This document shows positions 4,812 through 46,043 of a stretch of DNA of 64,000 nucleotides, piece by piece; position 1 is the first letter of the stretch, and every line of letters begins with the position of its first letter. Below the pieces are notes generated by a model. The model searched no databases and was not told where the DNA came from. It worked only from the letters and a program-made list of their open reading frames with translations. The stretch spans positions 25,824 to 89,823 of the forward strand of contig JAQUPG010000002.1 of NCBI GenBank assembly GCA_028716725.1, given 5' to 3'. Position numbers and translations under genes: made by a program. The stretch is from Patescibacteria group bacterium. GTDB taxonomy: Bacteria; Patescibacteriota; Patescibacteriia; Patescibacteriales; JAQTRU01.

Positions 4812-4875
4812 CACCTCACCCCGTCGCTATCGCTCCTCCCCTCTCCTAATTAGGAGAGGGGTTGGGGGTGAGGTA
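4812..4875. repeat. GC-rich palindromic repeat, subfamily CCCCTCTCCT-AATT-AGGAGAGGGG...GGGGTGAGGT
   Basis: Near-perfect 60-nt palindrome centred on cctaattagg, intergenic between the DUF362 gene and cca. Related copies at 9737..9784 and 39511..39546. Confidence 0.6.
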
Positions 4876-4922
4876 TTATTCGTAATTTGTAGATTTGAAT
4901 TTATTTGCAGATTCGCATTATA

Positions 4923-8899: not shown

Positions 8900-10642
8900 C
8901 TAACTTCTCTTTCTATAACTAGTATGCAGCACTTTATGTTCCAATTTACCCTGGCCTTCTAACCATTTTAAAACTTCTAAAACCCCCTTATTCTCATGGG
9001 CTTTTCTTATTTTTTTGCTTTTATCCAGCTTATACAAAGCAGCCGTTCTTTTTTTTCTGATTTCATCCGTGGTCGGAATCGGCTGGCCTCCCCCGCCAAT
9101 ACAACCGCCCGGACAGGCCATTACTTCAATATAGTCGTATTTATTTAGATTGGCTATGACCGGTTCTATATTGCCGATGCCGTTAACGACCGCCACTCTT
9201 AATTTTTTACCGGCCACGGGCACAATCGTTTCTTTCACCCCGTCCAGTCCGCGCACTTCTTTAAAATCAAGCCGGGTCGGGCAAATTTTTCTTTTATTTT
9301 TTCCGCAAGCTAAAAATTGGGCGGTGCGCAAGGCCGATTCCATCACTCCACCGCTGCCGCCGTAAATAACTCCGGCACCGCTATATTCCCCTAAAATATC
9401 ATCGGCTTTGGTCGGTTTTAATTTGGGGAAATTAATACGGTTCTTTTTTAAAAGCCAGGCCAGCTCCCTGGTGGTCAAAACGTAATCTACCGGGAAAAAT
9501 CCCTTTACTTTTAGTTCCGGACGCGTGGCCTCAAATTTTTTGGCGGTGCAAGGCATTACGGAAACGACTACAATATCTTTAGGGTTAATATTCATCTTAT
9601 CCGCCCAATAAGTTTTTACTATCCCGCCGAGATGAACATGGGGGCTACGGGCCGTAGTTAAATTGGGAATTAATTCCGGATGGTAAAACTCAACATATTT
9701 TACCCAAGCCGGGCAACAGGAGGTTATCATCGGCAACCTCTCCTCCCTTCCCCCTCCCCTAATTAGGGGAGGGTGGGGTGAGGTCTTTATTCGTTTCAAC
9801 AATTCTTCTGCTTCCACCATAGTCGTAACATCAGCCCCGAAACTAACATCAAAAATATAATTAAAACCAAGTTCTTTCAGGCCGGACACGATTTGACCGG
9901 TTAAAATTTCGCCATAAGCTAAATTAAATTCCTCGCCGATGCTTACCCGAATAGAAGGAGCAAATTGGGCGACAACAACTTTATTTTTGTTTTTCAGGGC
10001 TCTCTCCACCATTTCCCACTGGCTTTGTTCCTGGGCCGCCCCGACCGGGCAATGGACCGCGCATTGCCCGCAATAAATACAATCGATTTTTTTATCTTTA
10101 GTCGGCACTATCTCCTGGTCAATTCCCTTACCCTTCAACTCCAAATAATTAATATTTTGCAGAAGCGAACAGGCATCAAGGCAATTGCGGCAATCTATGC
10201 ATTGCGTGCCATCAATTTCCACGGCGTTGGCAAATTTATAAATTTTTCTTTTCCCCTTTCGGTCAGGAAAACGCTTTATTTCAATTTTATACCTTTCCGC
10301 CAAATCCAAAAGGCCACAATGCACATTCCAAATGCAAGTCGGGCATTTTTCAATATGTTCGGCAAAAATCAACTCAATATTTAAATTGCGCGATTTTTTA
10401 ACTCTTTCCGTATCAGTCCATATTTCCATGCCTTCCGCCACTGCCTTTTTGCAGGCTAGGGAAAGTTTTTTTCCTCCTTTAATCTCCACGACACAAATCC
10501 GGCAATTGCCTTTAATCGGAAAATCTGGATGGTGACAAAGTCCGGGAATGAATATCCCGTTTTCCCGCGCTACCTCCATGATAGTTCTACCGGGCAAACA
10601 ATTTATTTTTTTTCCGTTAATTTTTATTTCAATCTTTTTCAT
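8900..10642 (-). CDS. hydA: [FeFe]-hydrogenase catalytic subunit HydA (N-terminal 2Fe-2S and 4Fe-4S domains plus H-cluster domain)
   Basis: H-cluster motifs L1 TSCCPAW, L2 MPCTAKKFE and L3 EVMACPGGCIGGGGQP. N-terminal 2Fe-2S ferredoxin fold plus CxxCxxC clusters. Confidence 0.85.
   Translation of the reverse strand: MKKIEIKINGKKINCLPGRTIMEVARENGIFIPGLCHHPDFPIKGNCRICVVEIKGGKKLSLACKKAVAEGMEIWTDTERVKKSRNLNIELIFAEHIEKCPTCIWNVHCGLLDLAERYKIEIKRFPDRKGKRKIYKFANAVEIDGTQCIDCRNCLDACSLLQNINYLELKGKGIDQEIVPTKDKKIDCIYCGQCAVHCPVGAAQEQSQWEMVERALKNKNKVVVAQFAPSIRVSIGEEFNLAYGEILTGQIVSGLKELGFNYIFDVSFGADVTTMVEAEELLKRIKTSPHPPLIRGGGREERLPMITSCCPAWVKYVEFYHPELIPNLTTARSPHVHLGGIVKTYWADKMNINPKDIVVVSVMPCTAKKFEATRPELKVKGFFPVDYVLTTRELAWLLKKNRINFPKLKPTKADDILGEYSGAGVIYGGSGGVMESALRTAQFLACGKNKRKICPTRLDFKEVRGLDGVKETIVPVAGKKLRVAVVNGIGNIEPVIANLNKYDYIEVMACPGGCIGGGGQPIPTTDEIRKKRTAALYKLDKSKKIRKAHENKGVLEVLKWLEGQGKLEHKVLHTSYRKRS
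9737..9784. repeat. GC-rich palindromic repeat inserted in frame within hydA
   Basis: cctctcctcccttccccctcccctaattaggggagggtggggtgaggt. It encodes PHPPLIRGGGREER just upstream of the L1 motif and is a near-copy of the intergenic palindromes at 4812 and 39511. Confidence 0.6.
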
Positions 10643-11001
10643 AAACTCATTTGTTCATTTAACCAGCCCATAATAATTCCAACAATATAATCAACTTCTT
10701 CCTTTCTTAATTCCCGCCCAGCTTCTATTTTGTGCCATTTCGATAAACAGCCACGGCAACAGGTAGCAGTCGCATGCTGGGCAACAAATACCGGGTGCCC
10801 CCTCATGGGCGTTTGCTTGCCGTCATTTTTCGGATTAGTCGGAGCCAAACGATCTGCGATAAAATCATAAGCATGCTGCCGAATAATATTTTCACCCTTA
10901 TCCTCAAAATATTCTCTTTCTTTCTCTTTTAACTTAAAGCCTGACCTAAACTTTGATTTTTGCAACCGCGCTTTTATTTTCTCCCATCTTTCATTATTCA
11001 T
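10639..11001 (-). CDS. hypothetical Cys-containing protein (HATATCCRGC motif) between hydB and hydA
   Basis: 120 aa, translationally coupled on both sides (ATGA overlap with hydA, 3-nt gap to hydB). Not NuoE-like. Confidence 0.45.
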   Translation of the reverse strand: MNNERWEKIKARLQKSKFRSGFKLKEKEREYFEDKGENIIRQHAYDFIADRLAPTNPKNDGKQTPMRGHPVFVAQHATATCCRGCLSKWHKIEAGRELRKEEVDYIVGIIMGWLNEQMSL

Positions 11002-11004
11002 AAG

Positions 11005-12051
11005 TCATCTAAAACATTCACAAATCGTTTTCTTATCTAGCTTTCTTAAGTTTATTTTACTGGCTGGCATCTTAACCAAAACGTTATTCAGGTATGATTT
11101 AATCGGCACTGGCACTACGATGCCCAAACCGCAGAAAGCTATTTCTTCTAAATTAGTAAGTAACTCAGAAAAAAGCTGCCAATCCGGATTAGGCAAATCC
11201 ATCATTTCCCTTAAGCGATAAACCCCCTCCCGGCAGGGCGTGCATTTTCCGCAGGATTCGTTAAGAAAGAAATCAAGCCAGCTTTTGATTAAGTTCTCTG
11301 GCTTGTGCTTCATCATGCTGTAAACGGTAATTGAACCGGCTCCGCTTACTGGCTGCCTTAATTGCCTGCTTCCCAAAACTTCTCCTGAGGCTTCTCCGCC
11401 CACCTGGACAAAAAAAGGAAACCTCGGGTAATTCTTAGTTTCCTTTAATATTTTTTCAATTGTCCAATTATCCGGAAAGAGAAAAACGCCGGTCCATAAA
11501 CAATCGCCGCTGATTGTATAAAATCTTTCTTTTTTATACTGATTCAGAGCCACTAAACTTACATTATAAAAAGTTTCTACGTTATTAATTAAAGTTGGGC
11601 AACCCCATAAACCACTAGTTTGCGGAAAGGGAGGACGTAGTCTTGGCTCGATCCGTTTGCCCTCAATGGCATTAAGCATTGAGCTTTCCTCTCCGCCGAT
11701 ATAACCACTCTCAATCGGTTTTATAAAAAATTCAATTGGCGCTTTATCTATTATCTTAATTAAATTTTTACTGAATTTTTTATGGTAATTATGATTTATA
11801 TAAATATAAGCCTTTTTGGCTTTTAAAAAATCAATGGCTATTTTTATGCCACCAATCACTTTTTCGGGAAAATTTTCTAAGATATAGCTGTCCTTGGCTA
11901 CTCCCGGCTCCCCTTCGGAAGCGTTGCAGACTACGTATTTCTTCGCGCCCTTGGCTTTCTTAACCGCCTTCCATTTGTCTGCTACCGGGAAACTAGCTCC
12001 GCCCCGGCCCACTAAACCAGCTTTTTTAATTTTAACCAAGATATCCATCAA
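11005..12051 (-). CDS. hydB: NuoF-like NADH-binding flavoprotein subunit of hydrogenase (HydB)
   Basis: GRGGASFPVADKW, NASEGEPGVAKD (FMN site), GGEESSMLNAIEG (NADH site) and ESCGKCTPCREG (4Fe-4S). Confidence 0.8.
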   Translation of the reverse strand: MMDILVKIKKAGLVGRGGASFPVADKWKAVKKAKGAKKYVVCNASEGEPGVAKDSYILENFPEKVIGGIKIAIDFLKAKKAYIYINHNYHKKFSKNLIKIIDKAPIEFFIKPIESGYIGGEESSMLNAIEGKRIEPRLRPPFPQTSGLWGCPTLINNVETFYNVSLVALNQYKKERFYTISGDCLWTGVFLFPDNWTIEKILKETKNYPRFPFFVQVGGEASGEVLGSRQLRQPVSGAGSITVYSMMKHKPENLIKSWLDFFLNESCGKCTPCREGVYRLREMMDLPNPDWQLFSELLTNLEEIAFCGLGIVVPVPIKSYLNNVLVKMPASKINLRKLDKKTICECFR

Positions 12052-25177: not shown

Positions 25178-25266
25178 AATGGATGGCGCATAACTTAAAT
25201 AACGTTTTAATTATAAAACGTTAATAGGCTACGCGGTTCGTATTATGCGAAAATAAATTCCACTAA

Positions 25267-25643
25267 TATCAGGGCAAGCTATAAGCCGGATTCTGTTTAA
25301 ATAGTCATCTATCTAGTTCCGAAGTTACCCTCGGAATCAAGCGAGCCACTTTTTTCCCGCTCAAATGCTTTAGCATTCTGGAGTGGGATTTGCTCTTGCT
25401 TCAGACAGGGTTTACCGCGTCACTCTGTTACCAGAGGACGATCCAAGTAGCGTAAATTAAACGGATATCCGAGATCAATTTACACACCCTGGAACTTTTC
25501 ACGTTTGGTCCCGATTGCTCGGGACTAGTATAGTCTCTGTGGCACTTTCCCTAAGATTACTCTTGGTGGGCATTACCCACTGCCTTTTTAATGAAGTCCG
25601 GACTTTCCTCCCGCCCAAATTTTTGGGCGATTGACTATCCACT
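25267..25643 (-). ncRNA. rnpB: RNase P RNA (bacterial type A)
   Basis: Minus-strand reading shows P4 5' strand AGGAAAGTCCGGAC, GGGTAATGCC, GTGCCACAGAGA and P4 3' strand ACAGAATCCGGCTTATAG. P1 pairs tcagggtaagt with agcttgccctga. The P3 hairpin is cgcccaaaaatttgggcg. Confidence 0.8.
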
Positions 25644-25858
25644 TACCCTGATATTATTGAAATTTAAAGGACTAATTATACGAATAACATAGCACTTGAT
25701 AACTTAAAAGTCAATAAATTTACTATATTATATTTAATTTTAGCCAAATTTACTAAAAATAAATAAATTAAAAACCTTGACAAATTATAAATTATATGAT
25801 ATAAAGGAATGTTCAACATGCACCTTCAAAACCGAGAAAAAAACAACGAAACTCAGAT

Positions 25859-36902: not shown

Positions 36903-37667
36903 TTAATTTTCTAAATCTATTACTTCCCTCGCCAGCCGTTCATACGCTTTTCCGCCCCGCGACCCCGGGTCATAATGGAGGATTGAGCGGCCATAGCTCG
37001 GAGCCTCCGCCAATTTTACGCTTCGGGGAATTACCGAGCGGAAAACCCGATTAGGAAAATACTGGTATAACTCATGCATAACCGAAGAAGCTAAACGGTT
37101 TCTTCCGTCATACATGGTAATCACCGCTCCCATAATCCCCAGCTCCGGCTTTAAATTATTCTGCACCAAACCGATAGTTTCCAATAACTGCCCCACGCCT
37201 TCCAAGGCGTAATATTCGCTTTGGATTGGAATTAAAATTTCATCCGCCGCCACTAAGCTATTTATGGTTAAAAGGCCCAAAGAAGGCGGACCGTCAATTA
37301 TAATATAATCATATTCATCCTTTATATTTTCAAGAATTCGGGCCAGCCGATATTCCCGGTTTTCCATATTGACTAATTCTACCCCGGCTCCGGCTAAAGC
37401 TATGGTAGAAGGCGCGATTTTATACCCCTCCTGCAAAGTTCTCTTGGTAATTTCAAATATCGGTTTAGCCCCGATTATGGCTTCATAAATTCCGCTTTCC
37501 AAATTTTTATGGTCAATGCCCAAGCCGGAAGTGGCGTTAGCCTGCGGATCAATATCCACTAGCAAAACCTGCTTACCTAAAGCCGCCAGATAAGCGCCCA
37601 AATTCACGGCTGTCGTTGTCTTCCCTACCCCGCCTTTTTGGTTAACAATGGATATAATTTTTCCCAT
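36903..37667 (-). CDS. parA: chromosome partitioning ATPase ParA/Soj
   Basis: MGKIISIVNQKGGVGKTTTAVNLGA Walker A. Start placed at the internal Met (track start 37706). Confidence 0.9.
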   Translation of the reverse strand: MGKIISIVNQKGGVGKTTTAVNLGAYLAALGKQVLLVDIDPQANATSGLGIDHKNLESGIYEAIIGAKPIFEITKRTLQEGYKIAPSTIALAGAGVELVNMENREYRLARILENIKDEYDYIIIDGPPSLGLLTINSLVAADEILIPIQSEYYALEGVGQLLETIGLVQNNLKPELGIMGAVITMYDGRNRLASSVMHELYQYFPNRVFRSVIPRSVKLAEAPSYGRSILHYDPGSRGGKAYERLAREVIDLEN

Positions 37668-37698
37668 ACGTACTAATATTATATATGAAAAAAAATTC

Positions 37699-37728
37699 TT
37701 TGACAATTTTTCTTACTTTCATTATACT
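37699..37728 (+). promoter_or_regulatory. consensus sigma-70-type promoter (TTGACA-18-TATACT) reading into the GC-rich element and tRNA-Leu
   Basis: Exact -35 and near-exact -10 hexamers with 18-nt spacing, read directly. Confidence 0.5.
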
Positions 37729-37747
37729 AAAAGCAGTTTCAAAAATA

Positions 37748-37857
37748 GGCCCTGGTGGCCCGCCTCCGTCCCGAGCGTCGGGACTTCGGCGAGGCAAGCG
37801 GAACTGGCATGCCTCGCTGAAACCGGGCTTCAGCTCGGCGAGGCCGGTAAACGCGCA
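37748..37857 (+). other. GC-rich structured element whose first 11 nt (gccctggtggc) and an internal gcggaactgg match the 5' end of the downstream tRNA-Leu. Candidate tRNA remnant, leader or small RNA.
   Basis: ~110 nt at ~68% GC in a ~40% GC genome. Internal hairpin cgaggca...tgcctcg and direct repeat tcggcgagg. Lies between the consensus promoter and tRNA-Leu. Confidence 0.4.
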
Positions 37858-37880
37858 CAATTAATTTAAAATACATTATA

Positions 37881-37964
37881 AGCCCTGGTGGCGGAACTGG
37901 TAGACGCGCACGACTCAAAATCGTGTGGACGCAAGTCCATGAGAGTTCGATTCTCTCCCTGGGC
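37881..37964 (+). tRNA. tRNA-Leu (anticodon CAA), type II with long variable arm, no encoded CCA
   Basis: Anticodon stem-loop cacga-ctCAAaa-tcgtg, variable arm tggacgcaagtcca, T-arm gagag-ttcgatt-ctctc, acceptor gccctgg/cctgggc with one T-T mismatch. Confidence 0.8.
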
Positions 37965-38068
37965 ACGGATAATTTAAGATTTCAGATTCTAGAATTCAGA
38001 ATAAAAACAAACACAAAATCACAAGCCAAAACCAAGGGGGGGGTATTGGCTTTTTTGTTCATTGAGAA

Positions 38069-39442
38069 TTGAATCAAACCAAGATAGACAAAAACATTTT
38101 AACGGGAGGTACGGAAATGATTAAAAGATTTACACTGCCGGAAATGGGATCTTTGTGGACCGATCTTCACAAGAAAACCATGTGGTTCAAAGCTGAATTA
38201 GCGGGATTGTGGGCGAAAGCCAAGCATGGTGATTTTTCCATGGAAATCTATAATCTCGCCAGGAAAGTAAAAATCACGGAAGGCGTACTCGCTAGAGCTG
38301 ATGAAATCGAAAAAAAAGGAGACCATGATCTCATCGCGTTTGTTTTAGCAGTCACTGAACTGCTGAACGACCTGGTTAAGCCCTTTTTTCACACCGGCTT
38401 TACTTCATTTGATATTGAAGACACTGCCCTCGCTCTGATATTGCGTGATTGCCTTTCAATCATTCTGACAAAACTGAGGCGCCTCAGAAGTGTTTTGCTG
38501 GCGAGAGCTATTGAACATCGCTATACTCTGCAAATCGGCCGAACACATTTTATCCATGCTGAGCCGATAACTTTCGGATTCAAACTCTTGGGATGGGTTG
38601 ATGTGCTTGACCGTCATATCATAAGGCTTGAATCCTTACGTAAAGAAATCGCAATCGGCAAATTTTCCGGAGCCGTAGGTATGTATACTCTTGACCCGGA
38701 AATCGAGCGTTTGGCATGCAAACACCTCAGACTCCGGCCGGCAATGATTTCCACACAAATTATCAGCCGCGACATACTTGGTCATTATGCGGCTACTCTA
38801 GCGGGAATAGCTAACTCACTTGATCGCTTTGCGACTGAAATTAGACATCTCGCCGGCACGGATATCAGCGAAGTTGCCGAATTTAAGAGACCAGGGGCTA
38901 AGGGCTCTTCCGCAATGCCTGGAAAAAGTATGCTCCGCAACCCGATCAAAAGCGAGAATACTTGCGGGCTGGCAAGAGTCTCTAGAGGATACCTCATTCC
39001 TGCTTTCGAATGTGAGGTAACCTGGGGCGAAAGAACTCTCGAGAACTCGGCCGCTGAGCGCGTCTACCTCCCTGATTTGAGCATTACATTGGATTTTATG
39101 CTCAATCGTTTTGCCGAAGTTATGGAAAAACTCGAAGTCTTTCCTGCGCAAATGGAAAGAAATATTTGGCGAACAGGCGGTATTGTGTTCTCGCAACGTG
39201 TTATGATCAAACTCACCGAAAAGGGAATGCATCGCGATCAGGCATACGATCTGCTTGAAGCGCTCGCCTTGTCCGTTGAACGTGGCACTTTTACAACCGC
39301 AAATGGCGAATCTTTTAAAGATCTCGCATATGCAAATAACTCTATCGCGGGATTGTTATCTTGCGAGGAGTTAGACGAATGCTTTGATCCGAAATCGGCC
39401 CTGAAGCACATTGACGAAATCTTCTCAAGATTCGCAGTATAA
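38069..39442 (+). CDS. purB: adenylosuccinate lyase
   Basis: RFTLPEMGSLWTD, GRTHFIHAEPITFG and GSSAMPGK...RNPI...EN fumarate-lyase signature. Colinear with Bacillus PurB. GC ~46%. Confidence 0.85.
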   Translation: MNQTKIDKNILTGGTEMIKRFTLPEMGSLWTDLHKKTMWFKAELAGLWAKAKHGDFSMEIYNLARKVKITEGVLARADEIEKKGDHDLIAFVLAVTELLNDLVKPFFHTGFTSFDIEDTALALILRDCLSIILTKLRRLRSVLLARAIEHRYTLQIGRTHFIHAEPITFGFKLLGWVDVLDRHIIRLESLRKEIAIGKFSGAVGMYTLDPEIERLACKHLRLRPAMISTQIISRDILGHYAATLAGIANSLDRFATEIRHLAGTDISEVAEFKRPGAKGSSAMPGKSMLRNPIKSENTCGLARVSRGYLIPAFECEVTWGERTLENSAAERVYLPDLSITLDFMLNRFAEVMEKLEVFPAQMERNIWRTGGIVFSQRVMIKLTEKGMHRDQAYDLLEALALSVERGTFTTANGESFKDLAYANNSIAGLLSCEELDECFDPKSALKHIDEIFSRFAV

Positions 39443-39510
39443 ACACAATTCTGGAATTTTCGAGCGGCCTCCGACTTATCGGAAGCCGCTTTTTTTATTT
39501 CCTAAACAAT

Positions 39511-39546
39511 CCCCTCTCCTGGCTAGGAGAGGGGCAGGGGTGAGGT
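39511..39546. repeat. GC-rich palindromic repeat (cccctctcct-ggct-aggagagggg-caggggtgaggt)
   Basis: Third member of the subfamily seen at 4812 and 9737. Confidence 0.55.
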
Positions 39547-39701
39547 AGTTGCTTTTTTATAAAAAGTCTGATAAAGTAAAGAAAGAAAAAACACATAAAA
39601 TAAACTAACTAAGGAGGTTAGTTTTTTGTTCCTTAGAATTAAATAATTCACTATAAGTACAACTGGAAAAATTAACAGTCTAACCGAGAGGCAGGAAAAC
39701 C

Positions 39702-40238
39702 ATGGAACAAGAACGGGTTTTAGTTATCGAAGGCAGCGAAAGCGACAACCCGAAAACCAATGAATTTCTGAAAATTCTGGAAGCATGTAACGTAAAATAT
39801 CATGCTCTCGTCGCATCCGCCCATGTGCATGCCGGTCAGGATTTCTTCAATTTTGTCGCAAGCCTTCCGGAAAGATTCATAGTCTTTATCGGAGGCATGT
39901 CCCTGGTGGCGCCAGGAATAATTTCCAGAACGCGCTACAATATGGGCAGATATGATACCATGGTTTTCGGGGTACCAACTGATCCCGAGGCTCGAAGTGC
40001 AGTTGAGGTTCTACCCCAAGGAACATTTGTGCTTACTTCAGGGCTGAACACCGTTAGTCCTACACATGGCATTCAGAACAATGCTCTGGCAGTCGCCCAC
40101 TTCGTTTTTATAGTCACGGGCGATACGGACATTGGCGAAGGGCTCACAGCCTGGTATAAAAACATGAAGGAGAAAAAACCGATTAAAAAGTTTGAACTGG
40201 ATAAAGATGGTCTTATCCCTGAAAAAGAAAAGAAGTAA
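39702..40238 (+). CDS. PurE-like (AIR carboxylase / N5-CAIR mutase fold) protein with a divergent active site
   Basis: GSESD, SAHV (canonical SAHR) and IGGMSLVAPG (canonical AGGAAHLPG). PurE fold with altered catalytic residues. Confidence 0.55.
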   Translation: MEQERVLVIEGSESDNPKTNEFLKILEACNVKYHALVASAHVHAGQDFFNFVASLPERFIVFIGGMSLVAPGIISRTRYNMGRYDTMVFGVPTDPEARSAVEVLPQGTFVLTSGLNTVSPTHGIQNNALAVAHFVFIVTGDTDIGEGLTAWYKNMKEKKPIKKFELDKDGLIPEKEKK

Positions 40239-40310
40239 AACTACCCATCACCAGAACCCTTGCCGAAGCTTTAAAAGCGGCTTAAGGGCAAAACCTGAAA
40301 GGAGTAAATC

Positions 40311-41210
40311 ATGGAACTGGCACCCGTACTGCTTCGAACTGACATCCCGGTTCTACAAAATCCGGGCAGAGGAAAGGTCCGCGATATTTACGATCTGGGC
40401 GGCCACCTTCTGATTGTCACCACGGACCGCATCAGTGCCTTTGACTGCATTCTGCCCACCGGCATTCCGGGTAAAGGCGGAGTTCTCAATACCATGTCGG
40501 CTTTCTGGTTCGAATTCGTGAAAGATATCGTCCCCAGCCATCTCGTTACCACAGACATCCACGGCTTCGCGAAAAAATTCTCGCCGGAACTTGTACCTTT
40601 TCTCGACCAGCTCAAAGGCCGGTCAATGATCGTCCGCAAAGCCCAACGCATTGATGTGGAATGCATCGTGCGCGGCTATCTTTCCGGAAGCGGCTGGAAA
40701 GAATATAAAAAGAGCGGAACCGTCTGCGGTATTCCCCTCCCAGCCGGCCTGGTCGAATCGGACCGGCTTCCTCAGGCCATTTTTACCCCTTCCACCAAGG
40801 CCGAAAACGGGCATGATGAAAATGTCAGCTTCGACATCGTCGTCAAGATGATCGGCCAGCCGCTGGCGGAGAAAATCCGCGACCTCTCGCTCGCCGTGTA
40901 CGAAAAGGCACGGGCCTATGCCGAAACCAAGGGCATTATCATTGCCGATACAAAATTCGAATTCGGGGAGGTGGACGGCCAGACAATTCTGATCGACGAA
41001 ATTCTCTCCCCGGATTCATCGCGGTTCTGGCCGAAAGCGCTTTACCGTCCGGGCGGCCCGCAGATGTCGTTCGACAAGCAATATGTTCGCGACTGGCTCG
41101 AAGCCGTCGGCTGGAATAAAGAGCAGGATACGGCGCCCGAATTGCCGCCCGAAATCGTCGCCAAGACCACGGAGAAATACCAGGAAGCTCTCAAACTCCT
41201 TGTGCCATAG
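40311..41210 (+). CDS. purC: phosphoribosylaminoimidazole-succinocarboxamide synthase (SAICAR synthetase)
   Basis: [16 protein letters not shown] and IPGKGGVLN...SAFWF motifs. GC ~55%, far above background. Confidence 0.9.
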
Positions 41211-41230
41211 GAGGATAATTTTACAAAAAC

Positions 41231-41266
41231 AAAGCACCGAATCTACGGAAACGGTGCTTTTTTATT
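41231..41266 (+). terminator. rho-independent terminator after purC
   Basis: agcaccg-N12-cggtgct followed by TTTTTT. Confidence 0.7.
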
Positions 41267-41321
41267 TTATAAAATTCTTCTATTTCTAAATACTAAATAC
41301 TATATACTAGATACTCATTCC

Positions 41322-43610
41322 CTACTTTTCCAGCTCCTCTACCTTTTTCTTAATTTCCGCGTTATTCGGATTTAACTCCAAGACTTTTTTAAAATATTCT
41401 AAAGCTAATTTGTCTTCGCCTTTTAATTCTAAAGCCAAGCCAATACTGTAAAGGGCGTTAGAGTGAACCGGATTAATTTCAATCACTTTCAAAAATTTGT
41501 CTAAAGCTTTATCAGTTTCTCCCTGGTTATAATATAATCTCCCCTGCTCATAATAAATTCGCTCGTCTTTATAAATCTTGCCTAGCTGGTCTAAAATCCC
41601 CAAGGCCTCATTGGTTTTTCCCTGCTTGCCATAAAGCTGGGCCAGGGCGAAATCAGCTTCATGATAATTATTTTTAAGTTCCAGCGCCTTCTTCAGGGAT
41701 TGCTCGGCTTCGTCCAGTTGACCGGCATCCAAATAAGCCTTGCCTAATTCCGTTATAATTACCGGATTGGACGGCTCCAGGGAAGAAGCCTGGTTAAAAG
41801 ATTTAGCCGCCCAAATTTCACTGCCCTGAGTAAAGGATCCTATGTCGCGGTAAACCATACCTAAGGTTTCCCAGGCAGCCACGGCCCTAGGAGAAATTCT
41901 GGTCGCTTCCTTGGCCCAGGCCACACTGCTGTTAATCGACTTCTGGATTAATTCGTCATCCCTAAAATCAGCCGGCTTTAAAGCTTCACTCCTTATTTTA
42001 TTAAGGTAAGTTTTAGCTAAACGGATATCATAATCGCCTTGATAAGAATTTAGCCGGGCGGATTTAATTAAATTAGTTTCGCCTCCGGCCCGGGCGTAAA
42101 AATCAGCCAGCCAGTAGCGGATGGTAAAGCCGGCTAAAACGAGCCAGGCGGAAAAAAAGAAAAACGCTCCAATCTCAAGTATCTTAAAAAAAAATTTTTC
42201 TCCTTCTAATTTTATCTCTTTAAATACCAGCCAGCCCGGATAAACCCGCCAGGAAACCATTAAAAGGGCCAGCATCAGCCAAAACAAGAATAAGGTGGAA
42301 GTGCTGGCATAATAGGAAAACTGGAAAAAGATTAAAACTAAAAGCGCCACCAGCAAAAAGGAAGCCGGGCCGCTTTCCTCTTCTCCGCTCCCCCTTTTTA
42401 AAAAAATAAAAATTAAATAAAAAAGGGATGATAAGATAAGAAGATAACTTAAAATTCCCAGGATTCCTATAGTCCCAAGCATCTCCAGGATAGAGGAAGC
42501 GCCATGGTCAAACCTGAACTGCCAAAGGTCCGTGTTGTTTAAACTATCCGGGCGATACAGGGAAAAAATATAGGAAAACGTCCCGGGTCCGCTGCCTAAT
42601 ATTATGTTTTCCTTAAAGGCCGGAAAGATAACGGAGGCGGTGTCTTTAAAGCCAAGATTTATTTCCGGGGAAAGGTCCTGACCGGTTAGATATTTGCCCA
42701 TTCCGCTTAAACGAGCGGGGAAAATTAAAAACGCCGCGGCTAAAATGATAAAAAGAGAAAAAAATAAAACCTTTCTCTTATTTAACCCGCCAACCTTAAA
42801 TCCGGCGTTCCTTAATTCCAAAAAAATAAACAGGCAGCCGACGATTGCCAGCCCCTGCCAGGCCAAGGAAAAATTTACTATTACCAAAAAAATCAAGGAA
42901 AAAAATAAAATTATTCTAAACAGCCAGATGCTTGCCCCGTTAGAAATAACGCCCCCACTGGAATTTCTAACGGGGCTTGCCTTTTTGGCCCCGTCCCGGC
43001 GGCAGCAAAATATTATTCCCGGCAGCACCGCCATCATCACAACGCTGTAAAGCGCCAGCATCTCCAGGGAGCCACCAAGAAAATTAAAGTTTAAGGAAAA
43101 GAAAGTATTTGTTTTCTGGAGCAGCTTGTCCCATAATCCAAAAACGGAAAGAAAGGCGGAAAGAAGAATTAAGACATAAGAATAAAGCAACAATTTCAAT
43201 AAAGAAAGAGGAGTTAGGCGCCCGTCCGCATTGGCTAAATTAACAATTAAAAAATAAAAAATGGCCAAAGCCAGAAGGCCGAACCAGGCGTTGCCAGCCG
43301 CGCCGGAATAACCGAAAAAAGAAGCCAACCGGTCCTGGCTGAAAATACTGGACAACAGGGTAAAAATTAAAAAAGTCAGAATCGGAATATCAAGGGGCGT
43401 ACGCTTAAATATTATTTTCTTCTCAAATTTAACCATCTTCACCAGCCATAAAACCGCGGCCAGAATCCCCGCCAGCCAGAGCAGAGCCTGCTTGTTAAAT
43501 TCAAAAAATTCCAGCGTCCAAGGCAAAAAAAACAAAGGTAAAAAGAAGACCAAACCCTTTACTAAATAAATAACCAAATTGTTTAAAATAACGTCAAAAC
43601 GATTGGACAT
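41322..43610 (-). CDS. large polytopic membrane protein, O-antigen ligase-like plus C-terminal TPR repeats
   Basis: 762 aa with the same architecture as 18806..21319 (TM block, then TPR-like AYLDAGQLDEAE..., ALEYFKKVLELNP...). Confidence 0.5.
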   Translation of the reverse strand: MSNRFDVILNNLVIYLVKGLVFFLPLFFLPWTLEFFEFNKQALLWLAGILAAVLWLVKMVKFEKKIIFKRTPLDIPILTFLIFTLLSSIFSQDRLASFFGYSGAAGNAWFGLLALAIFYFLIVNLANADGRLTPLSLLKLLLYSYVLILLSAFLSVFGLWDKLLQKTNTFFSLNFNFLGGSLEMLALYSVVMMAVLPGIIFCCRRDGAKKASPVRNSSGGVISNGASIWLFRIILFFSLIFLVIVNFSLAWQGLAIVGCLFIFLELRNAGFKVGGLNKRKVLFFSLFIILAAAFLIFPARLSGMGKYLTGQDLSPEINLGFKDTASVIFPAFKENIILGSGPGTFSYIFSLYRPDSLNNTDLWQFRFDHGASSILEMLGTIGILGILSYLLILSSLFYLIFIFLKRGSGEEESGPASFLLVALLVLIFFQFSYYASTSTLFLFWLMLALLMVSWRVYPGWLVFKEIKLEGEKFFFKILEIGAFFFFSAWLVLAGFTIRYWLADFYARAGGETNLIKSARLNSYQGDYDIRLAKTYLNKIRSEALKPADFRDDELIQKSINSSVAWAKEATRISPRAVAAWETLGMVYRDIGSFTQGSEIWAAKSFNQASSLEPSNPVIITELGKAYLDAGQLDEAEQSLKKALELKNNYHEADFALAQLYGKQGKTNEALGILDQLGKIYKDERIYYEQGRLYYNQGETDKALDKFLKVIEINPVHSNALYSIGLALELKGEDKLALEYFKKVLELNPNNAEIKKKVEELEK

Positions 43611-44819: not shown

Positions 44820-46043
44820 ATGTCTCTAATCGTGCAAAAGTGCGGCGGCACTTCGGTGGCTACTCCGGAAAAAATCGGAAAAGTGGCGGACCATATAAGG
44901 CGCTGCCGGGAAAACGGAAATGATATCGTTGTTGTTGTTTCGGCTATGGGAGAAGAAACCGACAGGCTTATTGATCTGGCCAAAGGAATAAGCCCAAATC
45001 CTGACGAACGGGAAATGGACCAACTTCTGCAAACCGGAGAGGTGGTTTCAGCCGCCTTGCTGGCCATGGCTCTTAACGGTAAGGGGACGCCGGCTAAAAG
45101 TTTAACCGCGGCCCAGATTGGCCTTGTCGCTGCCGGCGAGTTCGGAAAGGCAAGGATAAAATCCTTAAAAAACCGGGCACTCATAAGAAACCAGTTAAAA
45201 CAGGGAAAAGTAGTCATTATCGCCGGATTTCAGGGTATCTCCGAAAAAGGCCTAGACATAATTACTTTAGGCCGGGGCGGATCCGACACTACGGCCGTGG
45301 CTTTAGCCGCTTTCCTGAAGGCCAAGGTCTGTGAAATCTATACGGACGTTGACGGCGTTTATACAATTGATCCGCGTTTAGTGCCTAACGCCCGCCGTTT
45401 TGACATAGTCTCCTACGAGCAAATGATTGCTATGTCTGTGGCCGGAGCTGGCGTGCTAATGGACAGGGCTGTTATATTGGCCAAGATGTATGGCGTGAAG
45501 ATCAGAGTGCTAGTTTCCCCCAGTATTAAGGAAAGCACTGGCGGCACTTTAGTTACCGCTACCAGCGGCAACATCTCTGATCTGGAAAAAACCGCCGACC
45601 AAAGCGGAATAGCTATAAAAAAAGAGGTTGGCTGTATCCATGTCTTTGGCATCCCCGATGAGCCTGGAAAAGCCGCGGAAATTTCCTCCCCCCTTGAAAA
45701 AATAAATGTAATTGACATTGCCCAAAGCCGAGGAGCGGGAACTGCGCAAATTTCTTTTCTCCTGGACGTGGCAACGGCAGAAAAAGTTTTCCCGAACATG
45801 GAGAAAATGGGGGGAGCAGAAACCGCCTTGCGCCAAGGACTTGTAGCTATCTCTCTTGTCGATCTGGCCATGAAAGAAACGGCTAACTATTTCCGGAGAA
45901 TTGCCAAGGTGCTGGGAGATAACGGCATAAACATTGAATTCATCTCCACTAGCCAGACCGGAATCACGATGGCGATTTCTGACAAATACCTGAACAAGGC
46001 TGCTCAAGCTTTAGCCCGAGAATTTGACCTTTTGTCGTCTTGA
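44820..46043 (+). CDS. lysC: aspartate kinase
   Basis: VQKCGGTSVATPEKI, VVVVSAMG, C-terminal ACT domains. GC ~50%. Lone plus-strand gene. Confidence 0.85.
   Translation: MSLIVQKCGGTSVATPEKIGKVADHIRRCRENGNDIVVVVSAMGEETDRLIDLAKGISPNPDEREMDQLLQTGEVVSAALLAMALNGKGTPAKSLTAAQIGLVAAGEFGKARIKSLKNRALIRNQLKQGKVVIIAGFQGISEKGLDIITLGRGGSDTTAVALAAFLKAKVCEIYTDVDGVYTIDPRLVPNARRFDIVSYEQMIAMSVAGAGVLMDRAVILAKMYGVKIRVLVSPSIKESTGGTLVTATSGNISDLEKTADQSGIAIKKEVGCIHVFGIPDEPGKAAEISSPLEKINVIDIAQSRGAGTAQISFLLDVATAEKVFPNMEKMGGAETALRQGLVAISLVDLAMKETANYFRRIAKVLGDNGINIEFISTSQTGITMAISDKYLNKAAQALAREFDLLSS

Follow-up and report, generated by a model that had tools for sequence, protein, structure and literature searches.

Three purine biosynthesis genes that run against the prevailing strand directly behind a tRNA gene raise the question whether they reached the chromosome together, as a foreign islet, or belong to it. 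We address this question for a 64,000-nucleotide stretch of DNA from a Patescibacteria group bacterium (contig JAQUPG010000002.1; hereafter the window), in which positions 38069-41210 hold three successive plus-strand open reading frames (ORFs) of the pur type, encoding PurB, a PurE-like protein and PurC. A preliminary description, made from the letters of the sequence, had proposed that the whole block was acquired horizontally at the neighbouring tRNA-Leu(CAA). Our comparisons favour a different answer: the block is quite probably an ordinary, lineage-conserved purine module of a patescibacterial chromosome (candidate phyla radiation, CPR), in which purB and the PurE-like gene have been inherited vertically and purC is xenologous.

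The purine block and its relatives

The features on which the argument turns are the following.

37882..37966, plus strand: tRNA-Leu(CAA) (ARAGORN; Rfam 53 bits), the same upstream neighbour of the pur cluster as in relatives
38117..39442, plus strand: purB, adenylosuccinate lyase, 441 aa (TIGR00928; Lyase_1 and ADSL_C)
39702..40238, plus strand: divergent PurE-like gene of the AIRC superfamily, 178 aa (PF00731 match)
40311..41210, plus strand: purC, succinylaminoimidazolecarboxamide ribonucleotide (SAICAR) synthetase, 299 aa from the ATG at 40311 (NF010568; AGGAG ribosome-binding site)

The minus strand carries 44 of the 51 long ORFs in the window, and the pur genes make up three of the remaining seven, which confirms the picture of three adjacent plus-strand purine genes amid mostly minus-strand genes. 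The block had further been described as deviating as a whole in GC content and codon choice. We compared it with the 51 window ORFs taken as genes, whose GC content at third codon positions (GC3) is 0.440 +/- 0.052, and on GC3, codon and tetranucleotide measures the description stands for purC. With a GC content of 0.550, a GC3 of 0.654 (z 4.1) and a synonymous-codon distance of z 4.2, this gene ranks first of 51 on all three measures and is the sole extreme outlier. On GC3 the description does not extend to the other two genes, which lie at background (purB 0.455, z 0.28; PurE-like gene 0.453, z 0.24), and the total GC of purB, 45.6%, is inside the range of its neighbours (for example parB with 46.8%).

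The order parA, tRNA-Leu(CAA), purB, PurE-like gene, purC recurs among Patescibacteria relatives. In L001, L002, L005, L009 and L010 the same tRNA-Leu(CAA) separates parA from the pur genes, and across the relatives that share this arrangement ParA is 84-96% and the PurE-like protein 45-77% identical to that of the window. A metagenome scan with a tightened alignment of the PurE-like family gave six loci, and at every locus with an identified downstream gene the PurE-like gene lies directly upstream of purC. On this comparison the linkage between the tRNA and the pur genes is old. The loci compared are listed here with the identities of their proteins to those of the window.

L005 (another Patescibacteria metagenome-assembled genome, MAG): PurE-like 77%, ParA 96%; parA, tRNA-Leu(CAA), purB, PurE-like, purC, TPR, AI-2E transporter, threonyl-tRNA synthetase (ThrRS)
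L009 and L010: PurE-like 45%, ParA 84%; parB, parA, tRNA-Leu(CAA), purO-like IMP (inosine monophosphate) cyclohydrolase, purB, PurE-like, purC
L006 and L011: PurE-like 54-56%; PurE-like-purC, divergent from pyrimidine genes
L099, L100 and L102 (metagenome contigs): PurE-like 42-45%; purB-PurE-like-purC or PurE-like-purC in unrelated neighbourhoods

As a protein, PurB is in no way unusual. Like the canonical bacterial enzyme it passes the curated equivalog model TIGR00928 over its full length (396 bits against a cutoff of 326.2), and it contains PF00206 (Lyase_1, 4.8e-40) and PF10397 (ADSL_C, 2.1e-17). About 80 homologous proteins make up an unbroken series whose identity falls from 100% to about 50%, and all those named by source belong to Patescibacteria (Falkowbacteria, Buchananbacteria, Parcubacteria). 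The first matches outside the CPR are from cyanobacteria and Firmicutes, at 44-46% identity. Because of this graded series and the background GC3, purB appears to have been inherited vertically. The suggestion that PurB groups outside its host lineage is contradicted by the same series, which is congruent with the Patescibacteria, an outcome that the preliminary description had itself named as speaking against an acquisition.

Genes do move at this slot in general; in the window genome, purB and the PurE-like gene were not imported. The movement is seen in a sister lineage represented by contigs from three independent samples (L092, L093 and L094), which stand nearer to the window than L005 does (TPR protein 79-84%, AI-2E transporter 88% identical). 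A non-homologous purB and a different AIRC gene occupy the same slot in L092 (486-2590), in L094 and, on the purC side, in L093. The PurB of this type has 476 aa, is 27% identical to that of the window and falls below the TIGR00928 cutoff. The accompanying AIRC protein is a further, third divergent type (GSDSD / ASIHR / AGWANALTG) that aligns to the window family with an hhalign probability of 94.6. Nucleotide homology between L092 and the window breaks off at the start codon of purB and returns some 70 nt ahead of purC. We take the window arrangement to be ancestral and L092 to be swapped, since L005, L009 and L010 share the window type. The slot would then stay prone to recombination, with the purB-purE pair exchanged for non-homologous versions in the closer relative.

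The origin of purC

PurC matches NF010568 over its full length (403.7 bits against a cutoff of 251) and PF01259 (7.1e-75). It differs from the canonical bacterial PurC (NF010568 / PRK13961 type) solely in its origin, being of the Latescibacterota type within a CPR genome. Its nearest CPR orthologues are those of L005 (79% identity), L092 (71%) and L095 (69%). The next matches, at 65-70%, are of the Latescibacterota type, those actually named Latescibacterota lying at 65-67%. The match at 70% comes from a contig of 737 kb that also encodes LptD, MreBCD and an LpxL-type acyltransferase and has purH beside purC, which there has a GC3 of 0.74 in a region of 59% GC; this contig is that of a diderm, non-CPR organism. 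PurC of the CPR relatives L010 (54%) and of L006 and L011 (36-40%) is less similar to that of the window, and the order is the reverse of that of the PurE-like proteins, for which L006 and L011 are nearer to the window than L010. A scan of genome contigs with PurC gave, among the matches listed, many phyla at 54-62% identity and no Patescibacteria.

We built a neighbour-joining tree of PurC from corrected distances, with 47 taxa, about 20 other phyla and 200 bootstraps. The window group (CPR-A) and the Latescibacterota-type PurC proteins form a clade with 100% bootstrap, and the window group alone is supported with 78%. The PurC of L095, a close CPR relative (PurE-like 73%), is found inside the Latescibacterota-type clade, and that of L010 is placed elsewhere. 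The proposed grouping of PurC outside its host lineage is thus upheld by the tree and by base composition.

The GC3 of purC is also raised in the sister lineages (L005 0.67, L092 0.58, L095 0.63). Because purC is equally GC-rich there, it would have been acquired before these lineages split. Window and L005 differ by a synonymous divergence (dS) of 0.5-1.7 (0.69 for purC), so that synonymous sites are unsaturated and an incomplete amelioration of purC is plausible. We suggest that a GC-rich, Latescibacterota-like donor supplied purC as a xenologous replacement shortly before the lineages of the window, L005 and L092 separated. The gene would still be only partly ameliorated, and this partial amelioration after transfer would explain its GC spike. 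Such events are known as xenologous, or in situ, displacement in conserved operons. The likeness is twofold: in the window a foreign orthologue would have taken the place of the former purC, and the purB-purE pair of the L092 lineage was replaced with breakpoints at gene boundaries. The difference is that here both the donor and the mechanism, possibly homologous recombination on the flanks, are putative.

The PurE-like protein and alternative readings

The second gene of the block encodes a protein at the edge of what family models recognise. It barely passes PF00731 (Pfam AIRC; 34 bits against a gathering threshold of 30) and lies far below the cutoff of the NCBIfam purE model TIGR01162 (29.4 against 149.6 bits), for which its relatives score 22-42 bits. 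Of two very large protein collections, one with 5.8 billion clusters gave 12 relatives and one of 1.84 billion gave 24 representatives, and a single-sequence search of them did not reach canonical PurE. The family is rare and appears to be restricted to the CPR, and wherever the context is visible its members are found in CPR-type loci. The family profile matches class I PurE structures well (Methanocaldococcus jannaschii 2ywx, 1.6e-27; Escherichia coli 1qcz, 1.9e-22) and class II structures weakly (Treponema denticola 3rg8, 7.7e-10 and in the N-terminal half only; 4ja0, 6.5e-4). An AlphaFold2 model has a mean predicted confidence (pLDDT) of 94.3, and its top 50 Foldseek matches are all PurE with template modelling (TM) scores of 0.66-0.78; for E. 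coli PurE the TM score is 0.70-0.78 at 24-26% identity. A LarB-like identity was also considered. PurE length, the purC context and the best matches to class I PurE structures speak against it, LarB itself not having been compared.

The active site is partly conserved. The GSxSD loop is kept, with G11, S12 and D15 invariant in the family, and the catalytic His is His41 (E. coli His45; SAH in the window), present in at least 90% of members. Where E. coli has an Arg directly after it (Arg46), the window protein has Val42, and family members show R, W, V or K. In the 70s loop, GGMSL(V/A)APG (GGMSLVAPG in the window), the column of the class I His is occupied by Val or Ala. The motif VPTDxAARSAIExLP and a GLIPxxEKK tail are specific to the family. 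Two members, P0010 and P0011 (ASVDWH / ASADWH), carry Asp where the catalytic His is otherwise nearly invariant; this points to a shift of register to the next His or else to a loss of activity in the two.

These features place the protein apart from both known classes. With class I PurE, the N5-carboxyaminoimidazole ribonucleotide (N5-CAIR) mutase (E. coli 1QCZ/1D7A, M. jannaschii 2YWX), it shares the fold, the size of about 160-180 aa, GSxSD, the catalytic His and the position next to purC. It differs in having GGMSL(V/A)APG instead of GGAAHLPG, so that His75 is lost, in the change of Arg46 to Val, and in the additional motif and tail; nor is purK seen nearby: the 64 kb of the window have none, and neither do the related loci within 10 kb of their annotated parts. 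Class II PurE, the aminoimidazole ribonucleotide (AIR) carboxylase (T. denticola 3RG8, human PAICS), belongs to the same superfamily and would explain a function without PurK. The 70s-loop signature of class II is SNGLGP. By alignment the window protein lacks it, it has Val and not Lys after the His, and its profile fits class I structures much better.

We propose that the PurE-like protein converts AIR (or N5-CAIR) to CAIR, that PurC would add aspartate to give SAICAR, and that PurB would release fumarate to give aminoimidazolecarboxamide ribonucleotide (AICAR) and also act in the step from adenylosuccinate to AMP. PurB is also needed to make AMP from IMP. The role of the PurE-like protein as supplier of CAIR to PurC is suggested by its context, because its adjacency to purC is invariant and because another AIRC gene replaces it in L092. 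The L009 and L010 loci extend this set of genes: between tRNA-Leu and purB they encode a divergent, archaeal-type IMP cyclohydrolase (PurO; L009 2018-2758, L010 1132-1872) with a GC3 of 0.68. It was identified by PF07826, and its score with NF003167, 65 bits, is under the cutoff of 150.

That the whole block is a recent genomic islet, placed by site-specific integration beside tRNA-Leu(CAA), is very improbable. The block does resemble tRNA-linked genomic islands in lying directly 3' of a tRNA, on the minority strand and with terminators at its end, and in holding one gene of strongly foreign composition. In L005 and L092, att-like copies of the tRNA 3' end stand in 116-nt tandem units after the tRNA, which indicates that recombination occurs there, and the exchange of the purB-purE pair in L092 points the same way. 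The block differs from such islands in that two of its three genes are compositionally normal, with purB and the PurE-like gene at background GC3, in being syntenic across the lineage, and in the lack of an integrase and an att repeat in the window. We found no second copy of the tRNA 3' end (19 nt, at most 3 mismatches) elsewhere in the 64 kb and no att-like repeats that bound the block, the best local repeat being a 12/13 match inside purC. No integrase or transposase-type family is present among the annotated neighbours (ParA, ParB, TPR, AI-2E transporter), and the three pur ORFs are the only long ORFs between the tRNA and the terminator. An empty tRNA-Leu site was not found among the relatives: the block is present in L005, L009 and L010, and L092 has the swapped version. 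Relatives whose PurE-like protein is as little as 45% identical still have the tRNA and the pur genes linked, PurB belongs to a series of Patescibacteria proteins, and the spacer from tRNA to purB (37954-38119) is itself conserved, with 86% nucleotide identity to L092, as far as the purB start codon. The proposal of an islet acquired at a tRNA thus fails for the block and survives for the foreign purC. On inspection the islet is largely ordinary: a conserved CPR purine module with one foreign gene and a divergent PurE.

Several observations do weigh against a conserved module with a xenologous purC. The PurC tree is a neighbour-joining and not a maximum likelihood tree, and CPR-A is sister to the Latescibacterota-type clade, not nested in it, so that the direction of transfer would be read mainly from composition. 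PurC evolves slowly (55-65% identity across phyla), and some of the incongruence could be noise. All three pur genes of L099 (635-3434) and L100 (8533-11521) have a GC3 0.05-0.25 above that of their neighbours, which hints at a gene-specific or module-wide effect and is not explained by horizontal transfer of purC alone. The window purB ranks third of 51 on synonymous codon usage (z 2.3) despite its normal GC3, which is unexplained. No other pur genes, including a source of AIR (purF, purD, purN, purL or purM), were found in the 64 kb and about 10 kb past its right end, where cell-wall genes are located. And the activity of the PurE-like protein is a prediction for an active site that departs from both known classes. 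One alternative is therefore that the high GC of purC reflects a lasting, gene-specific trait of pur genes in this CPR group, due to mRNA or codon selection or to biased gene conversion, and that purC too is vertical. GC3 is indeed high in every relative examined (0.58-0.74), the trio of L099 and L100 fits this alternative, and in a protein so conserved between phyla a high cross-phylum identity is partly expected. We nevertheless consider it quite unlikely, given the 100% bootstrap of CPR-A with the Latescibacterota type against 20-odd other phyla, the position of the L095 protein within the Latescibacterota-type clade of the same tree, and the greater similarity of the window PurC to that of a diderm bacterium than to those of L010, L006 and L011, which contradicts the order of the PurE-like distances. 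A second alternative is that the PurE-like protein is not an AIR or N5-CAIR enzyme and has another substrate or role, or is non-catalytic, in which case the trio would not run from AIR to AICAR. This could account for the score of 29 bits under a purE cutoff of 149.6 bits, for the Val or Ala in place of the class I 70s-loop His, for the two members without a catalytic His, for the lack of purK at any locus, and for Val42, which in the family may be R, W, V or K, where PurE has an Arg that contacts the substrate phosphate, or Lys in the human class II enzyme (PMC10484210). Set against this, PurE contacts its substrate mostly through the backbone (PMC10484210), and purK is lacking, too, in methanogens and in other high-CO2 organisms, for which PurE is considered sufficient by itself (PMC3261824). 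The PurE fold, GSxSD and the catalytic His are kept, the gene is strictly adjacent to purC and usually to purB at every locus found, and L092 fills the same slot with another AIRC-type gene. We therefore regard this second alternative, too, as unlikely.

The missing source of AIR may lie elsewhere on the chromosome. A scattered full purine pathway is plausible for the window genome because a survey reports complete de novo purine synthesis for 32% of 399 CPR MAGs (PMC11608272). A more speculative proposal, which we regard as doubtful, is that the PurE-like proteins are a third, apparently Patescibacteria-restricted class of PurE, with a 70s loop of neither known class and a motif of its own, that works without PurK and for which the Arg or Lys is dispensable. 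The trio, together with purO in some relatives, would then be a compact, self-contained module that makes AICAR or IMP from an aminoimidazole intermediate obtained by scavenging, in organisms without the early de novo steps, and the slot would trade genes with phyla such as Latescibacterota. If this were true, the gene exchange with Latescibacterota may point to physical partners.

Layout, neighbouring elements and meaning of the locus

The signals that bear on transcription of the block are the following.

38023..38058, plus strand: terminator-like hairpin and U-run after the tRNA (-12.3 kcal/mol), conserved in the alignment of L005 and L092
39462..39498, plus strand: intrinsic terminator of purB (-21.6 kcal/mol, z -4.45, 0/200 shuffles as stable)
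39549..39577, plus strand: promoter-like site for PurE-like-purC (TTGCTT, 17 nt, TAAAGT; a consensus reading only)
39603..39632, plus strand: leader hairpin and U-run ahead of the PurE-like coding sequence, in its presumed 5' untranslated region (-7.9 kcal/mol, z -1.5; weak evidence)
41231..41268, unstranded inverted repeat: terminator hairpin and U-run 3' of purC (-15.6 kcal/mol, z -6.0, 0/200 shuffles as stable)

Since purB has its own terminator and a promoter-like site precedes the PurE-like gene, the block would form two transcription units and not a single operon. In this module between parAB / tRNA-Leu(CAA) and the TPR gene, purB would be transcribed alone to its own terminator. The PurE-like gene and purC would be transcribed together, from the promoter-like site to the hairpin at 41231-41268, which is apparently bidirectional and serves both purC and the convergent TPR gene (41322-43610, minus strand). 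The clean terminator reported at the end of the block is present. The stem of the purB terminator is kept in L005 and L092, and the block TTGnnTTTTTATAArAAGTCTGATAArGT in the 260-nt spacer between purB and the PurE-like gene is common to the window, L005 and L092. The leader hairpin, with a Shine-Dalgarno-like AAGGAGG in its loop, could be a weak terminator or attenuator-like candidate; L005 has a hairpin at the same site with different stem letters, as judged by eye. Rfam gave no riboswitch or other known RNA besides the tRNA in 37600-41400. Matches to Yfr10 and ncr1175 were sub-threshold, lay on terminator hairpins and were discarded.

The purB ORF also opens at a TTG at 38069; the ATG at 38117 is preceded by a GGGAGG ribosome-binding site and is likely the start, in agreement with a 441-aa NCBI protein (P0133, 100% match). 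With this start the gap between tRNA and purB is 150 nt, which replaces the 105 nt given before. For purC the ATG at 40311 behind AGGAG is most likely the start, and the L092 orthologue likewise begins with MELAP; the NCBI call is 297 aa from 40317. Identical proteins are recorded in the MAGs GCA_028712785.1 and GCA_028713775.1, labelled 'Patescibacteria group bacterium'. Judged by the relatives of PurB, the organism probably stands near Falkowbacteria and Buchananbacteria.

Other elements lie within and around the block. The first interrupts the spacer between purB and the PurE-like gene.

39511..39550, unstranded: palindromic dispersed repeat (repetitive extragenic palindrome, REP-like) of about 40 nt, an insertion specific to the window between purB and the PurE-like gene, which L005 and L092 lack

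The repeat consists of CCCCTCTCCT-N4-AGGAGAGGGG followed by GGGGTGAGGTA. A second copy is found at 4838-4877 and a degenerate one at 9751-9774, with 0 expected by chance.

Two observations concern the surroundings of the tRNA. In L005 (1775-1899) one 116-nt unit directly follows tRNA-Leu, and in L092 (1-325) there are at least two tandem units, the two copies being 99% identical. Every unit closes with 19-22 nt that copy the 3' end of the tRNA (CGATTCTCTCCCTGGGCAC). No such unit is present in the window. In appearance the units resemble att scars or an integrative element of miniature size. Upstream of the tRNA in the window, a GC-rich (about 64%) non-coding element at 37745-37860 (plus strand) stands between tRNA-Leu and a strong sigma-70-like promoter (TTGACA, 17 nt, TATACT at 37700-37728). 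It folds as a closed three-hairpin junction (-59.9 kcal/mol, z -3.5), has pieces of 15 nt and 22 nt in common with the 5' part of tRNA-Leu, and is not conserved in L005 and L009. A known RNA such as that of the signal recognition particle was considered and gave no Rfam match. The element may be a tRNA-derived or novel small RNA.

On the other side of the block, an aspartate kinase gene (44820-46043, plus strand and thus also on the minority strand; NF005155 402 bits) has a GC of 0.494 and a GC3 z of 1.3. It is absent from the AI-2E / ThrRS junction of L005, which suggests a separate gain or loss. We considered whether it was part of the purC acquisition and rejected this on account of its GC3 z of only 1.3, the two minus-strand genes that intervene and its absence in L005. 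The window further contains genes for a [FeFe]-hydrogenase large subunit, a NuoF-like partner and a DUF4186 protein (8900-12051, minus strand), a class A RNase P RNA (25266-25650, minus strand, 214 bits) and a cyclophilin gene (1891-2622). No record identical to the cyclophilin or to the 299-aa form of PurC came up, which is put down to mismatches of start codon or record.

For the annotation of such genomes, the PurE-like family matters in two ways. Equivalog models miss it, and surveys of pathway completeness that use them may score the step from AIR to CAIR as absent. Its altered active-site loops furthermore make the family a candidate for a biochemically distinct PurE. The locus as a whole would be a clean, small example of how xenologous replacement proceeds gene by gene in a streamlined CPR genome: purC would come from a Latescibacterota-like donor, and a sister lineage has exchanged the purB-purE pair, the breakpoints falling on gene boundaries. 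It bears on the question how the reduced genomes of episymbionts retain or renew their metabolic genes, and it might hint at their ecological partners.

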